DNA of 64,000 nucleotides, taken from Promethearchaeota archaeon (GTDB taxonomy: Archaea > Asgardarchaeota > Lokiarchaeia > Sigyniarchaeales > SOKP01). Positions 45,245-51,994 of this stretch are shown one piece after another. Both the position numbers and the translations under genes were made by a program. A model generated the notes under the pieces. It did not search any database and was not told where the DNA came from. It was given only the letters and a program-made list of their open reading frames with translations. The stretch spans positions 1 to 64,000 of the forward strand of contig JAEOUA010000012.1 in NCBI GenBank assembly GCA_016839555.1, in the 5' to 3' direction. Positions within the stretch are counted from its first letter, which is position 1; each line of letters starts with the position of its first letter.

Positions 45245-45724
45245 ATGAAAATCACAGCTGTAAAACTAAAAGATTTGAATAAAATTACTAAATTGGAAAA
45301 AAAAATTTTTAGAAAAAACGCATTTTCAAAAAAACTACTAAAAAAATTAATTCTAACTAGTCTTCTTTTCTTAAAGCTTGAAATTGGTGTTATAAAAAAA
45401 AAAATAATCGGTTTTATAATTATCCTTAAAGATAAAAATAATAGGGCGAATTTAATAAATCTTCTAATCGATTCTAAGTATCATAAAAACGGGTTTGGAA
45501 CTATTCTTTTAAAAACTGCTTTAACCAGACTTGAAAATAAATCAATGGTTTTTAAAAAAATTATTCTAAATGTAAACGTTGAAAATCTGCCCGCTATTCG
45601 ATTATATGAAAAATTTAATTTTAAAATAATAGAAAAAATCGAACATTATTATTATACAGGCGAAGATGCGTATTTAATGGAATTAAATTTGAGAAAAATA
45701 CAAAAATTCAATCAAGGTGCTTAA
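45245..45724 (+). CDS. GNAT acetyltransferase (RimI/Ard1-like)
   Basis: HKNGFGTILL, N..AIRLYEKFNF, YY..GEDAYLM. Confidence 0.88.
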   Translation: MKITAVKLKDLNKITKLEKKIFRKNAFSKKLLKKLILTSLLFLKLEIGVIKKKIIGFIIILKDKNNRANLINLLIDSKYHKNGFGTILLKTALTRLENKSMVFKKIILNVNVENLPAIRLYEKFNFKIIEKIEHYYYTGEDAYLMELNLRKIQKFNQGA

Positions 45725-45874
45725 AAAGTTCAAATTTAGTGAAATAAGATTATTTTTCATTTAAAAAGAATCTATTCATCAAAATTTAAATAGATAAACT
45801 TTTTTTTATGTTATAATAAGAATATAAGAATATAAATATAGTAAATTTCTAAATTTAAAAGGTGTGTTATAAAC

Positions 45875-46036
45875 GTGACCCCCGAATTAGATGACGAATT
45901 AAAAAATGAGATTAGAAAAGGAGTAAAGCTCCAAAAAGTCGATGAGGCGGAGTTAAGAAGGAGGGAAGAAGAGAAAAAAAAGCGACTAGCAGAGCTTGAA
46001 AAAGTAAAACAAGCCCTTGAAAAGCCAAATCCATAA
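45875..46036 (+). CDS. 53-aa WH2-motif microprotein (absent from the ORF track), candidate actin-monomer-binding protein
   Basis: GTG start after AAGGTGTG. Translation MTPELDDELKNEIRKGVKLQKVDEAELRRREEEKKKRLAELEKVKQALEKPNP. Purine-rich coding composition in an AT-rich gap; T-tract downstream. Confidence 0.8.
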   Translation: MTPELDDELKNEIRKGVKLQKVDEAELRRREEEKKKRLAELEKVKQALEKPNP

Positions 46037-46056
46037 ATAATAACTTGTTTTATTGC

Positions 46057-46076
46057 TATTTTTTTATTTTTTTTTG
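46057..46076 (+). terminator. Archaeal-type oligo-T terminator after the WH2 microprotein gene
   Basis: Two adjacent T-runs ~20 nt after the TAA stop. Confidence 0.45.
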
Positions 46077-46187: not shown

Positions 46188-47261
46188 ATGAGAATTCTAG
46201 CACAAGATAAAAAAAAAGGAGAAATCACGGTAATAGTAGAAAATCTAAATGATTTATGGTCATTATATAATATTATTACTAAAGGGGATACAGTGATCGC
46301 TTTAACTCAAAGAAGGGTTGTTATGAAAGAAGGTTCTACAGGGGAGAGAAAATTGATGAAACTAACATTATCTGTAGAGGATGCTGCATTCCATGAATTT
46401 ACTAACCGATTGCGGATAAAGGGGACCATTTTAGAAGGACCTAAGGATTATGTAAGCTATGGGTCTTATCATACATTTAATATAGAAATAAATCATGAAC
46501 TCACTATAATAAAAGATGAATGGTTAAATCAAGATCTCAAGAGATTAAAAGAGTCTTCTAAATTATCATCAAATTTTGTTATGTTAATAATAGCTATTGA
46601 ATCTGGATTAGCAAATATCGCTTACTCTACAAATTATAGTTATAAGAAAATTGCAACTGTTACTAAAAATATTCCGGGAAAGCGATATGAGCAATCATTT
46701 CGCAATAAATTTTTAAAAGATTTTTTTGAGGACATTAAAAGGATTATTGAAACTAGAGTTCAAAATAAGGATGTGAATCTTATAATCCTATGTGGTCCGG
46801 GTACTATCAAAGATAAATTAGCAAAACATCTCAAAGCAACTGCTAATGAGGAATATATTAATAAAATAAAAGTAATCCAAGCGAGTTCAGGAACGGAAAG
46901 TGCTATTTATGAGGCATTAAAATCTGATGAAATGGCTAATATAAAAAATAAAGCAAAAATTCTCCAAGAAACAAAAAAAATTGAAAATGTATTAGCTCAA
47001 TTTGGGAAGGATCCCGATCTTGTCGCAATTGGATTCGATGAAATTACTGAAGCGGCACAAAGAGGTGCTATTGACCAGTTATTAGTCGCAGATACTATAA
47101 TTCGAGGAGCTTCTAAATCAAACAGATTAAAAATAGAGGATATAATAAACCAAGTGGAATATGCAGGGGGAAAAGTCGATATTTTAAATTCAAAACATCC
47201 CGCAGGAGAGCGGCTAGTCGACTTAGGCTCACTTGTGGGAATTTTACGATATAAATTCTGA
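46188..47261 (+). CDS. pelA: Pelota / Dom34 ribosome rescue factor
   Basis: NDLWSLYNII, FHEFTNRLRIKG, GSYHT, IPGKR, GPG, H.AGERL..LGSLVGILRY. Confidence 0.95.
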   Translation: MRILAQDKKKGEITVIVENLNDLWSLYNIITKGDTVIALTQRRVVMKEGSTGERKLMKLTLSVEDAAFHEFTNRLRIKGTILEGPKDYVSYGSYHTFNIEINHELTIIKDEWLNQDLKRLKESSKLSSNFVMLIIAIESGLANIAYSTNYSYKKIATVTKNIPGKRYEQSFRNKFLKDFFEDIKRIIETRVQNKDVNLIILCGPGTIKDKLAKHLKATANEEYINKIKVIQASSGTESAIYEALKSDEMANIKNKAKILQETKKIENVLAQFGKDPDLVAIGFDEITEAAQRGAIDQLLVADTIIRGASKSNRLKIEDIINQVEYAGGKVDILNSKHPAGERLVDLGSLVGILRYKF

Positions 47262-47291: not shown

Positions 47292-48347
47292 ATGGTAAAA
47301 ATTAAAAAATCCGATATGAATGAAATTATATATGTGAATAAAAAATCGAAAATCCCATTATTGGGTTTAGATTTTCTGGGAATTATAGATCGGGGTACAA
47401 ATATTATTGAATTAAAGCCAATCACTTTATGTAATCTAAAATGCCGATATTGTTTTGTAAGTGCTGGAGAATATGATACTAATTTTATAATCGATTCTCA
47501 ATACCTGATAGAACAAGTCCAGACAATTGCTGAATTCAAAGGACATTATAATCTCGAAATTCACTTAGCCCCCTACGGAGAAATCTTACTATATAAGAAT
47601 TTATATGATCTTATTGATTCTCTATGGGAAATCAAGGGAATTGAGATTATTTCGATGCAAACAAACGGTTTACTACTAAATCCTGATATTATTAAGGAAT
47701 TTTCAGAGCATAATTTAACAAGAATTAATATAAGTGTAAATACTTTTAATCCTCGACTTGCTCAATATCTATGTGCTACTGATAACTATAATGTGGAAAT
47801 TCTATTAAGAAATATTCATATGTTATTAGACTCTAATATTAATGTTTTAATTGCTCCGGTTTGGTTTCCCGGTGAAAACAGAAATGATATCATGGAAATT
47901 ATTCAATTTATAGTAAATTTAAGAGATGAAGGATATACTAAAGAGCAAATTCAATTAGGGATTCAAAAATATTTAGTATATAAAACAGGAAGGAAATTAA
48001 AAAAAATCAAACCTAGGTCTTGGGGGTATTTTTATCACCAATTATCTGAGTTAGAAAATAAATATAATATTAAATTGAAATTAGGACCGAAAGATTTTGG
48101 AATTCATTCTCGCCCACTTTTTAATTTTCCCCTTAAAGAAGGTGAGATCATTTCAGTTGAAATTGTCTCTAAAGGAAGGTGGAAGAATGAATGTATTGGT
48201 AAAATAAATAATCAATTTTGTACTAAAGTCCTTTTAAATTATCCATTAGAGTATTCGAAAGATCTATTAGGGAAGAATATTAAGGTTAAGATATTAAAAG
48301 CAAAGAATACGGAGAATCTAATAACTTCATATGTGCCCTATCAATGA
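47292..48347 (+). CDS. Archaeal radical SAM protein with C-terminal TRAM-like domain (COG2100-like)
   Basis: GIIDRGTNIIE, CNLKCRYC, SMQTNG, LIAPVW.PG.N, IQKY..YKTGR. Confidence 0.88.
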   Translation: MVKIKKSDMNEIIYVNKKSKIPLLGLDFLGIIDRGTNIIELKPITLCNLKCRYCFVSAGEYDTNFIIDSQYLIEQVQTIAEFKGHYNLEIHLAPYGEILLYKNLYDLIDSLWEIKGIEIISMQTNGLLLNPDIIKEFSEHNLTRINISVNTFNPRLAQYLCATDNYNVEILLRNIHMLLDSNINVLIAPVWFPGENRNDIMEIIQFIVNLRDEGYTKEQIQLGIQKYLVYKTGRKLKKIKPRSWGYFYHQLSELENKYNIKLKLGPKDFGIHSRPLFNFPLKEGEIISVEIVSKGRWKNECIGKINNQFCTKVLLNYPLEYSKDLLGKNIKVKILKAKNTENLITSYVPYQ

Positions 48348-48580: not shown

Positions 48581-49219
48581 GTGAGTCTTATGCCCATTTT
48601 AACGAGTGAAGATGAATTAGATTTATCAAAATTAGAAAATGAATTAGCTAATGAATTAGAAAACCATGCGAAGGCAGAAAATAAAGTAGTTAAAGCAAGA
48701 AAAAAATTAGCCGAAAAAGTAACTGATATGTATATTACACGAGGATCCTTTAACAGAACTATGCGAGATGTGTTAAAACAAATACAGATGCTCGCCCGAG
48801 AACATAAATCAAACGTGAAAGAGGAAGATGTTAATGCCCTCACAGATCTAATAAAAAGAAGCGAAATAAATCTCGAAGCACATAAAAAATATGTTGATGT
48901 GATCAAAGAATTAACCTTAAGAAAGGATTATATGATTGAAAAGCAAATTGAATTTGCTCAAGCTTTAAAAATTGTTGCCGATAGAAGAAAGGTAGTAATT
49001 AAAAAAGCTTTAGATGTTGAAAAGATAAAAAATAAGATGGTAGAAGGCGATAAATTAAAAGAATTGGATCAAGAACAAAAAGATAAACAGAGAGAATTCG
49101 ATAGAGCAAGGGATATTCTCCTAAAAAAAATTGAGCAATTTAAAGATGTGTGCGATGAGATTCAATCAGATCTCTCGAAAAATAAAGATATTCTTAGCGA
49201 TCCCCATGCCTATTTATAA
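48581..49219 (+). CDS. All-helical coiled-coil protein, BAR-domain-like
   Basis: ~210 aa forming three long amphipathic helices with a basic tip RRKVVIKK...KIKNK. DKLKEL...REFDRARDILLKKIEQF resembles SNX/Vps5-type BAR helix 3. Fold is inferred. Confidence 0.55.
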   Translation: MSLMPILTSEDELDLSKLENELANELENHAKAENKVVKARKKLAEKVTDMYITRGSFNRTMRDVLKQIQMLAREHKSNVKEEDVNALTDLIKRSEINLEAHKKYVDVIKELTLRKDYMIEKQIEFAQALKIVADRRKVVIKKALDVEKIKNKMVEGDKLKELDQEQKDKQREFDRARDILLKKIEQFKDVCDEIQSDLSKNKDILSDPHAYL

Positions 49220-49526
49220 TTAGTATTTCCGTTTGCTAAATCTTAATGTTTTCACAATCACTTTCTCTCATATTCCTTTTTTCTTATTATTTCTAATTAA
49301 AATTAATTCATTAAAAAAATGGAGTAATTCATCGAATTATTTCCTTAGATAAACTCATTTTTATGTTGACATAAAAGAATAAGGAATATAGGATAAAGAT
49401 TAAATATAAATATAAAAATTAATATAAAATAATAGTAGATTAAAAATAGTAAATGGGAATAAAATTAGAAAAAATTATTTTTAATTTATCCTAAATAAAG
49501 AAAACGAGAAAAAAAGGAGTATTAAA

Positions 49527-50009
49527 ATGGCAGAAGAATTCACACGCTACTTAGAAGAAGCCAGAAAGGAACCTTTGGAACAAAAGGTGAATGACTTTGG
49601 CGAAATTGTAGAAAAAATAATGCGTATTATCCTTAAAATCCCTGATTTAGTGGATCAATCACTTGGGAGAATGAACCAAAAAATATCCGCATTAGAATCT
49701 AACATTAATCGATTAAATAATCAAATATCAAGCGGTCAACCATCAGCTGGTGGTTCAGCACCAGAGATTGGTGCCTCAGTACCGAAAGCTAGTGTCTCAT
49801 CACTTTCAGCCCCAAGTGGTCCTCCGGGAACACCCCCACCCTCAAGTGGTCCTCCGGGAACACCACCTCCTTCGGGCGGTCCCCCAGGTGGTCCCCCAGG
49901 AGGTCCTCCAGGTGGCTCACCAAGACCAGCTGGGCCTGTATCATTACGAGGGGCTATTATGAGTGAATTAAAAGAATTGTTCGCAAAGAGACAGCAATCT
50001 CAAGGCTAA
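49527..50009 (+). CDS. Coiled-coil + polyproline + C-terminal WH2/FAB-like helix protein (candidate actin assembly factor)
   Basis: AAGGAG before the ATG; heptad coiled coil in aa ~15-68; GPPGTPPP x2 and GGPP x3; ends LRGAIMSELKELFAKR. Confidence 0.7.
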   Translation: MAEEFTRYLEEARKEPLEQKVNDFGEIVEKIMRIILKIPDLVDQSLGRMNQKISALESNINRLNNQISSGQPSAGGSAPEIGASVPKASVSSLSAPSGPPGTPPPSSGPPGTPPPSGGPPGGPPGGPPGGSPRPAGPVSLRGAIMSELKELFAKRQQSQG

Positions 50010-50254
50010 TTTATTAGAATTAAAAGCTCTACTTAATCTGATGATTTATTTAACCAATCTCTTTTCTATTTTATATTATTTTACCTGAAGAATCCCCATT
50101 CTTTTGAAGAGATAAATATTTTTTACTTTTTTAGTTATAAGAAGAAAAGTTTTATTAATTCATGGAAATGTATTTAGATAGCAAAAAATTAAAAAAAATC
50201 TAAAAACTAAAAACATTATAATATTTAAAATATTTTGGAGGAATTTTAAATCTA

Positions 50255-51994
50255 TTGTCTAAATTTGGAACAATTACTGACTCGAACAAAAATGTGAAGG
50301 TTCATCACGATCTGATGCGACAAGTCTTAGAAATTCTGTCCCTCATTAGAGTGATGAATAATTATTATTATAAAAAAAAAGAAATTCAAGAGAAGATTAG
50401 ACCTACCATCTCCTCTTTTATCTATGAATTAAAAGGATTAGAGAAAAACAAGGACTGGCTTTTTAGTATTCCTTCCGTATTAAGTACTATTAATCAAGAA
50501 TTTGTCAACAAAAACGATTCCTTTCGATTTCCAGACGGTATTATCCTTTTTGAAGCATGGATGAATTTAGGTCTCGAAAGTTTATATCCGCAGATTGTAT
50601 TTTGCTTTAAGGTTCCTGGTTTTCTTAAAGGTGAGAAATCTCGATATATTTTTCAGTTTGTTTTTTCCATATCACGAGGAATTGGATTCCCGATCTATTT
50701 TTCTCCAGAATATTATAATTATACTCCTAAATTTTTGAAATATCTAAATCCTCTATTTAAATGGATTTATAAAATTTCCCATTTTAACAATATTCTTATA
50801 AAAGGAGCGATTGAAAATAGATTAAATACAAAACGGCATCATCCTGGTGAATTCGAATCGGTAATTATTTCTGAATTTGAGAATAATATCTATAAAGGAA
50901 TTAATACTCTCTTTCATGGCTATTTTACGAATGAACCAAAACTATTAGGTAAGTTCAATTCTTTAAATGAAGTCTTAGAAAAGATTATTTTTTCTTATAG
51001 AATTGGAGACCATGCGATGTGTGTACTGAATGCTTCTGATAAGGATATGCCCTATCTTAACATTCCTTTAGTCGATTACAAGTTAATAAAACAAAGATAT
51101 GAAGTAGATTTCTATTCATATATTGAAAAATTAATGAATGTAAATAATCTTCTATCCAAAAAAAGCGATTATTATTATAGAAAAGGAAAATACCTTATAT
51201 TAAATCTCCCTCTTGTGGAAAAATTTAAATTTTTGTTTTATATTATAAAAAAGATATTTCTTCCAACCCAAAAGATACCAGATAAATTTGAAAATATTGA
51301 AAATTACCATAAACATAAACATTTACTCGAACATTTACGAAATTTATTATGGACCACACCCTTATATTGCCACACAATCCATGATCCTTCTAGAATAAAA
51401 GAAATTTTTAAGTTTTCCCAAAAACCGGAGGAGTTAGATGAATTTGAATATGAAATAACTTCCAGAGAGTCAATTTTTTTCTCTTTTATAAAATCGTTTG
51501 AAAAAGAAAAACAATTTAGATTTGAGAATGAAGAAGTAATCAATGCATTGGGAGATTTACGAGATAGCATGGCTAAGATGTGGTTATATTTTAGGGAAAG
51601 ACATTTCAACTCCGCTATTAGAAAATTGAATACGCTTGTAAATCTCTCAGTAGATAATAAAAATTACAAAAGCATTATAAAACAAACCATTAAACAATTA
51701 ATTCCAATCATGGCAGTGTATGAAATTTTCATCAGACCTTTGTCGAATTCTTTCTTTCCAGAATCAATTCCCCAAACTAAGCGTTTAGGTGCTTACCTTG
51801 CAAAATTTTTTACCTCAAAATATAATCCTCTGGGTCTGAGTTTAATTAATTTTTTTAATAAACTCGCATATCGAAATTGGGCAAATCTGGTATTGAATAA
51901 AAAACTAAATAGAAGAGAATTTTTCAATTTAATAGTTAAATTACCAATTTGGAAACATATCCCAAATTATATCCGGGACTTCGTATTAGATTGA
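50255..51994 (+). CDS. Large hypothetical, mostly helical protein
   Basis: 579-aa ORF, GGAGG upstream of the TTG; no recognisable motif. Confidence 0.7.
   Translation: MSKFGTITDSNKNVKVHHDLMRQVLEILSLIRVMNNYYYKKKEIQEKIRPTISSFIYELKGLEKNKDWLFSIPSVLSTINQEFVNKNDSFRFPDGIILFEAWMNLGLESLYPQIVFCFKVPGFLKGEKSRYIFQFVFSISRGIGFPIYFSPEYYNYTPKFLKYLNPLFKWIYKISHFNNILIKGAIENRLNTKRHHPGEFESVIISEFENNIYKGINTLFHGYFTNEPKLLGKFNSLNEVLEKIIFSYRIGDHAMCVLNASDKDMPYLNIPLVDYKLIKQRYEVDFYSYIEKLMNVNNLLSKKSDYYYRKGKYLILNLPLVEKFKFLFYIIKKIFLPTQKIPDKFENIENYHKHKHLLEHLRNLLWTTPLYCHTIHDPSRIKEIFKFSQKPEELDEFEYEITSRESIFFSFIKSFEKEKQFRFENEEVINALGDLRDSMAKMWLYFRERHFNSAIRKLNTLVNLSVDNKNYKSIIKQTIKQLIPIMAVYEIFIRPLSNSFFPESIPQTKRLGAYLAKFFTSKYNPLGLSLINFFNKLAYRNWANLVLNKKLNRREFFNLIVKLPIWKHIPNYIRDFVLD

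Follow-up and report, generated by a model that had tools for sequence, protein, structure and literature searches.

A stand-alone WH2/beta-thymosin-like microprotein of Asgard archaea as a candidate actin-monomer binder

In eukaryotes, both the buffering of monomers and nucleation depend centrally on WH2 and beta-thymosin modules. The actin regulators known to date from Asgard archaea are profilins and gelsolin/cofilin-type proteins only (PMC12050087, PMC13716822), and WH2-like contacts are described there only as four-residue motifs in gelsolin linkers (PMC9433394; PMC13716822 and its preprint). The residue touched by these LKKT-type motifs, actin Asp25, is conserved in Loki actins (PMC9433394). 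Here we describe a microprotein of 53 residues, encoded in a window of 64,000 nucleotides (the whole stretch of DNA that was analysed), which appears from its sequence to be a single WH2/beta-thymosin-like module and probably works like WH2 or thymosin-beta. The preliminary description of this DNA had taken a free-standing WH2 microprotein to be undescribed in archaea. This is borne out by our literature searches, in which neither a description of the microprotein nor one of independent WH2/beta-thymosin units in archaea was found; the accession numbers of its orthologues are not mentioned in the literature searched. The gene and its surroundings are arranged as follows.

45245-45724: GNAT acetyltransferase (Pfam), upstream neighbour of the microprotein gene
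45820..45841 (+): AT-rich, TATA-like stretch, a possible promoter of the gene's own, inferred from sequence
45859..45864 (+): Shine-Dalgarno-like AAGGTG, 10 nt 5' of the GTG start
45875..46036 (+): coding sequence of the 53-aa microprotein, GTG start at 45875, TAA at 46034-46036
46047..46075 (+): oligo-T tracts (T7, T9), likely archaeal terminator before pelota
46188..47261 (+): pelota (eRF1 domains 1-3; Pfam), downstream neighbour
47292-48347: radical-SAM/TRAM protein (Pfam), beyond pelota

The coordinates (45875-46036) and the 53-aa translation given in the preliminary description are exact; the translation contains DELKNEIRKGVKLQKV, and the N-terminus agrees with homologues that start M-T/A-P. 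The Shine-Dalgarno sequence, AT-rich upstream region and T-tract terminator that had been ascribed to the gene are present as well (T7 and T9 at 46059-46075) and recur at 30 homologous loci. At almost all of these loci GGTG stands 7-10 nt 5' of the start, the loci share an AT-rich block 30-55 nt ahead of the start codon, and T-rich tracts follow the stop codon in 30/30, while the start codon itself differs (ATG, GTG or TTG). Conserved expression signals combined with a variable start codon indicate a translated, monocistronic gene. The GC content of the ORF is 38.9%, that of the flanks 14.7% (150 nt upstream) and 18.5%. Orthologues were identified by exact-sequence look-up in Promethearchaeum syntrophicum (DSAG12_00453 / QEE14640.1), Lokiarchaeum ossiferum (WP_371806818.1) and 'Ca. 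Harpocratesius repetitus' (MCF2139253.1), each annotated as a hypothetical protein. In the MK-D1 expression table DSAG12_00453 is transcribed (RPKM 347 vs 271-333 for its neighbours) and carries no eukaryotic signature protein flag. Judged by these features, the 53-codon ORF is a real monocistronic gene that was skipped by annotation.

The family is well conserved within one lineage. A word-indexed search returned 62 relatives with lengths of 42-60 aa, most of them labelled Lokiarchaeota or Promethearchaeota, and an exhaustive phmmer search retrieved 30 cluster representatives. A 695-aa phage tail-fibre protein (P0081) among the phmmer matches was a spurious repeat match and was discarded. Compared with the window copy, the microproteins at 30 loci have 62-80% identity, against 45-61% for the flanking GNAT and pelota proteins. 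The preliminary description had proposed conservation and dN/dS as a check on the ORF, to be abandoned if it proved not conserved or expressed. The check came out in favour of the ORF: with the family profile, 142 of the 153 genomes in the window's order show an unbroken frame, the median pairwise dN/dS is approximately 0.07, and the MK-D1 orthologue is transcribed. Conservation and dN/dS refute the idea of an untranslated chance ORF in an intergenic spacer. Such an origin could be suspected from the short length, the GTG start and the failure of any library family to match, and it is hardly credible for a gene with annotated orthologues in cultured species, of which the one in MK-D1 is transcribed.

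Outside the window's order, the family profile gave zero matches in about 247 genomes of the phylum; a broader profile matched 124 of 130 genomes in the order, plus marginal matches elsewhere. By these profile searches the family is restricted mainly to one Lokiarchaeia-type Asgard order, the one with P. syntrophicum and L. ossiferum, and it went undetected in most other Asgard classes, a distribution that suits an invention within the lineage better than an ancestral module of eukaryote type. ORFs of 60-62 aa (L132:774-959 (+), L133:1465-1653 (+) and L134:1432-1614 (-)), which occur in one genus belonging to a different Asgard family, are likely distant relatives of the microprotein (E 3e-4 to 7e-3). 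They share the N-terminal motif E-E-L-K-R-E-I-K-K-G-A-K-L-x-H-V, differ in the middle and have a C-terminal L-L-E-K-L-R-A-E-G-K-L-E-E-E-D, without the R-EEE-KKK-R helix. In another Asgard family, a protein of 222 aa or more, incomplete at a contig end (L135:1027-1692 (+)), for which Pfam gives no family, contains A-E-L-K-A-S-I-L-T-G-V-S-L-K-K-V-E-K-E-E, a near-canonical WH2-type string.

The microprotein itself consists of two segments.

45887..45943 (+): WH2/beta-thymosin-like segment, residues 5-23 (amphipathic helix, G16, then V-K-L19-Q-K21-V22-D23)
45944..46021 (+): long charged C-terminal helix, residues 24-49 (core R-EEE-KKK-R-x-EL-EKVK)

In the first segment L5, L9 and I13, spaced i, i+4, i+8, form the hydrophobic face of an N-terminal amphipathic helix, which is followed by a motif of the L-K-K-V/T type; this motif reads LKKV in many relatives and LQKV in the window protein, with Q for the first K. 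In the family alignment I13, K15, G16, L19, K21 and D23 show little or no variation, and the first five of these are signature positions of WH2. From an alignment of 56 sequences AF2 predicts (pLDDT 89.9) a helix at residues 3-15, a non-helical stretch at 16-23 (GVKLQKVD) and a helix at 24-49 with pLDDT >90, so that the charged helix which the preliminary description had placed after the WH2-like part reappears in the model. As modelled, this helix-linker-helix arrangement is the beta-thymosin layout: a stand-alone peptide of about 45-55 aa (here 53 aa) with N-helix, LKKT-type linker and C-helix. A Foldseek search of the PDB with the 53-aa model gave no match, which is not surprising for so short a helical peptide.

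The charged C-terminal helix is the best-conserved part of the protein (invariant E31, E32, E33, R37, E40, K43 and A47) and matched no known family. Since the strongest conservation thus lies in a half that has no counterpart in WH2, and since the PDB matches of this half are coiled-coil proteins, at the level of noise only, a reading without actin has to be considered. The protein could be a helix-linker-helix adaptor or oligomerisation module whose functional core is the charged helix, e.g. as a coiled-coil or partner-binding element reused in other proteins, and its WH2 likeness would then be convergence in a K/E-rich amphipathic peptide. The proteins that carry the module and the profile searches bear on this choice from both sides.

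L050:4864-6327 (-): tandem-module protein; others are L094, L096, L097, L051 and P0069
L102:1501-2253 (-): profilin domain, linker, module and small C-terminal beta-rich domain; proteins of this type have 251-302 aa
L054, L055, L140 and P0092: Ras/Roc-like GTPase-module-RHH proteins
L052, L053 and L137-L139: LRR-module-RHH proteins
L059 and L142-L144: small module proteins with RHH only

Genomes of family f3, the cultured species included, encode a 55-aa stand-alone protein together with one tandem protein of approximately 490-505 aa, which consists of about ten modules of 45 aa. The tandem modules often read hydrophobic-hydrophobic-x-E-I-x-x-G-x-x-L-K-K-I/V, and the tandem proteins are candidate multi-WH2 nucleators or filament-side binders; no actin link was seen among the genes beside the L. 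ossiferum-type tandem-repeat gene. The 55-aa subfamily has the motif EIE-x-x-DKSK-L/M-x-K-V, in which the spacing from helix to LKKV is two residues longer. Four of its members (L091, L092, L093 and L098) end in A-E-G-K-W-E-E, an acidic tail with a conserved Trp that recalls the acidic motif of the WASP family.

Fusions of a profilin domain with the module are found in two paralogue lines of genus g11 (L102, L103, L105 and L106) and in a metagenomic protein (P0082). A profile of the fused profilin domain (A6) matched the PDB entries 5zza (8e-18), 7pbh, named 'Profilin' (1e-14), 5yed (5e-14) and 5zzb (3e-13), the last of which is the Lokiarchaeum profilin (PMC10907219). By this homology the domain is a genuine Asgard profilin, an identity that rests on the profile search, the single-sequence AF2 model of a fusion reaching a pLDDT of 39. 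A second profilin-like family of approximately 205 aa (L108-L131, e.g. L108:1474-2091 (-)) is widespread in family f1; it has a Gly/Pro/Ala-rich linker and a conserved C-terminal helical domain with the pattern I-D-P-Q-L-K-G-E-I-x-x-F-L-E-W-I-K ... Y-I-N-Y-Y-L-Q-Q-N-N. The module is absent from this family and from the profilin-like family of approximately 420-440 aa. In the remaining fusions the RHH-like domain matches DUF6290/NikA-like/CopG, and the helix of the GTPase, LRR and RHH proteins reads [S/N]-L-R-x-x-[IV]-[ML]-x-E-[LI]-K, in keeping with R-x-x-L-L-x-x-I, the canonical WH2 helix pattern.

The close fit to the WH2 consensus emphasised in the preliminary description holds at the level of the motif and fails at the level of the Pfam model. 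The search with Pfam WH2 (PF02205) that it had proposed left the window protein unmatched up to E 10 (gathering threshold 23.1 bits), and a PF02205 scan of the whole genome does not retrieve the microprotein locus. The sole Pfam WH2 score in this genome lies outside the window, in a 44-aa open frame on contig C12 (236148-236186 (-), L001; 12.3 bits, E 0.9). Among 62 close relatives only two gave a weak match to Pfam WH2; scores of 14.1 and 13.4 bits were obtained for P0077 and P0088, and the relative P0074 lies above the cut-off (23.7 vs 23.1 bits). Pfam Thymosin (PF01290) matched neither the window protein, even at E 10, nor the 55-aa subfamily, and NCBIfam contains no family for the microprotein.

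The reverse search, in which four family profiles built from non-overlapping sequence sets were each run against 177,635 distinct PDB sequences, gave a consistent picture. The best match of profile A1 (62 stand-alone proteins) was N-WASP with three WH2 repeats (E 7e-6), and the WH2 peptides of N-WASP (2vcp), Spire (3mn7) and MIM (2d1k) were matched as well. Profile A4, made from the N-terminal approximately 26 residues of 44 diverse members, found N-WASP, the VopL WH2 structure 3m1f and again N-WASP as its best three. For profile A3 (the 55-aa subfamily of cultured Lokiarchaeia) the best match was a thymosin-beta4/Cobl hybrid (4pl8_H, E 0.05), aligned along E-I-E-x-x-D-K-x-K-L-K-K, and all six matches of profile A7 (36 repeat units from the tandem proteins of approximately 500 aa) were WH2 chains of N-WASP or Spire. 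Single WH2 repeats score just 7-12 bits against the family profiles, with per-domain E-values >1, and the lone strong E-value (7e-6) stems from the chain with three repeats. Each E-value alone is weak, though as a comparison of sequences the agreement of four profiles on WH2 and thymosin-beta4 is unlikely to be due to chance. In a language-model search, the named clusters of the ESM Atlas that lie closest are those with PF01290 Thymosin, at scores of 0.86 and 0.85, which, being below 0.9, count as a lead only.

For the adaptor reading these results cut both ways. It is in line with the failure of the window protein against Pfam WH2, with the fusion partners RHH and LRR, which have no known actin link, and with the observation that the GTPase, LRR and RHH fusions often match profile positions 12-50 only. 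It does not account for WH2 and thymosin-beta4 peptides coming first of 177,635 PDB sequences with four non-overlapping profiles, for the invariance of the WH2 signature positions I13, G16, L19 and K21, or for the canonical R-x-x-[IV]-[ML]-x-E-[LI] helix of the fused forms, and the profilin fusions point towards actin. On this evidence we consider an adaptor unrelated to actin unlikely.

The main argument for a role other than actin binding comes from the neighbourhood. Families f1, f2 and f3 preserve the order GNAT - microprotein - pelota - radical SAM even though the identity of the flanking proteins is only 40-60%, and pelota is the most persistent neighbour, which would suit an accessory protein of translation or ribosome rescue that acts together with pelota. 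However, the adjacency is missing at L040, L041 and L048, and pelota is not among the MK-D1 neighbour annotations of DSAG12_00453; at the L. ossiferum-type locus the neighbour search covered the 1.5-kb flanks only. The gene moreover has its own Shine-Dalgarno sequence, promoter-like block and T-tract terminator, with a spacer of 150 nt before pelota, and because of these signals we read the adjacency as inherited gene order and not as an operon. No ribosome-related family was matched, and no translation factor occurs among the fusion partners. A function with pelota is therefore improbable, and we continue with the WH2/thymosin-like reading.

Farther downstream, 3' of pelota and the radical-SAM gene, lies a block of three genes (48581-51994) that is conserved in genus g2 (L042, L043 and L045) and was undetected at f3 loci. 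The first (48581-49219 (+)) codes for a helical protein of 212 aa with a weak FCH/F-BAR match (E 0.025), and the third (50255-51994 (+)) for a protein of 579 aa that matched no family. The second (49527-50009 (+)) encodes a protein of 160 aa without a Pfam family. It has an N-terminal helical part, long polyproline runs of the type G-P-P-G-T-P-P-P and a C-terminal stretch P-V-S-L-R-G-A-I-M-S-E-L-K-E-L-F-A-K-R, which fits the R-x-x-[IV]-[ML]-x-E-[LI]-K helix found just ahead of the module in LRR and GTPase fusions (L137-L142, L059). The combination of polyproline and helix recalls PRD-WH2 proteins.

A BAR-like and a polyproline protein encoded nearby, together with the acidic Trp tail G-K-W-E-E of the 55-aa subfamily, speak for a further option raised in the preliminary description, namely the V module of a split nucleation-promoting factor, taken here to be of the WASP/WAVE type with an Arp2/3-like complex as its target. 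This option did not survive closer inspection and is very improbable: the window protein ends in A-L-E-K-P-N-P and lacks an acidic or Trp-containing tail, no C-region was matched, so that the features of a VCA unit are not present, and Pfam ARPC4 (PF05856) is unmatched in the 92%-complete genome.

We therefore return to the reading as a stand-alone WH2/thymosin-like peptide, for which a partner is available. A canonical Lokiactin (L002:1474-2616 (+)), with 97% conservation across the family, is encoded in the genome and keeps the cleft motifs SLYASGR and SILSSL. WH2-type helices contact the actin cleft residues Tyr143, Ile345, Leu346 and Leu349 (PMC10907219), to which, in our own reading, the two motifs would correspond. 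The prediction that the microprotein binds Lokiactin monomers is one that we are somewhat more inclined to accept than to reject. The thymosin-like factor postulated in the preliminary description finds partial support in several indirect lines that converge (profiles, P0074, Atlas clusters, AF2 model and profilin fusions), and falls short in Pfam membership.

A possible mechanism would be as follows. Helix 3-15 would dock in the cleft of the barbed face of actin, and L19-x-K21-V22 would extend along subdomain 1, with the G-V-x-L-x-K-V stretch drawn out across the acidic surface near actin Asp24/25. The charged helix 24-49, of 26 residues, would presumably run up the face of the actin molecule. 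The resulting 1:1 complex could buffer or sequester G-actin, or pass it on to barbed ends; sequestering as in thymosin beta4 and barbed-end growth as in ciboulot would both fit the data. The same module recurs in approximately ten tandem copies and in profilin fusions, and the GTPase, LRR and RHH proteins are candidate signalling links. If the module binds G-actin, these latter forms could be actin-sensing signalling or transcription proteins.

That the module is the functional equivalent in archaea of the eukaryotic WH2/beta-thymosin G-actin-binding motif, and perhaps its true homologue, and that Lokiarchaeia possess a whole WH2-based toolkit, is a possibility that we put forward tentatively and regard as rather doubtful. 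If true, the toolkit would comprise a thymosin-like monomer buffer, nucleators or filament rulers with about ten tandem modules, profilin-WH2 hybrids, and GTPase-, LRR- and RHH-linked forms, of which the RHH-linked ones could tie G-actin levels to signalling or transcription, similar to eukaryotic RPEL/MRTF. Control of actin by WH2-type modules would in that case be no invention of eukaryotes alone, and the question bears on how much of actin control predates eukaryogenesis. As a conserved, transcribed candidate of about 50 aa exists in cultured species (P. syntrophicum and L. ossiferum), this question is directly testable with a synthetic peptide. Genes of fewer than 60 codons, which are missed by ORF tracks, can evidently carry candidate cytoskeletal functions.

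Compared with the WH2 family (PF02205; N-WASP, WAVE, WIP, MIM, Spire, Cobl and bacterial VopL/VopF), the archaeal module has the same succession of an amphipathic helix of about 12 residues, a Gly and L-x-K-V/T, and it likewise occurs singly, in tandem arrays and near profilin-related functions. It differs in that the window protein, a free-standing archaeal protein of about 50 aa, has K for the second Leu of the LL pair and LQKV for LKKV and lies below any Pfam threshold, and in that the archaeal unit includes an invariant charged helix of 26 residues, with a repeat period of approximately 45 aa. With the beta-thymosins (thymosin beta4, ciboulot and actobindin; PF01290) it shares the stand-alone format of about 45-55 aa and the sequence of N-helix, LKKT-type linker and C-helix. 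In the 55-aa subfamily of cultured Lokiarchaeia even the spacing is thymosin-like, and its E-I-E-x-x-D-K-S-K-L-K-K can be aligned with thymosin beta4. The C-helix of the microprotein, however, has a far greater length, a high charge and no relation in sequence to theirs, and Pfam Thymosin is not matched. The linkers of Asgard two-domain gelsolins place an L-x-x-V/T motif against actin Asp25 (PMC9433394), as would the microprotein, but they are four-residue motifs within gelsolin folds, have no preceding cleft-binding helix and are not independent modules. Finally, the Leishmania profilin with an inserted WH2-like helix (PMC10907219) resembles the g11 fusions in that profilin and a cleft helix are combined in one polypeptide; in Leishmania the helix is an internal insertion, whereas in the g11 proteins a complete module follows the profilin domain and a linker.
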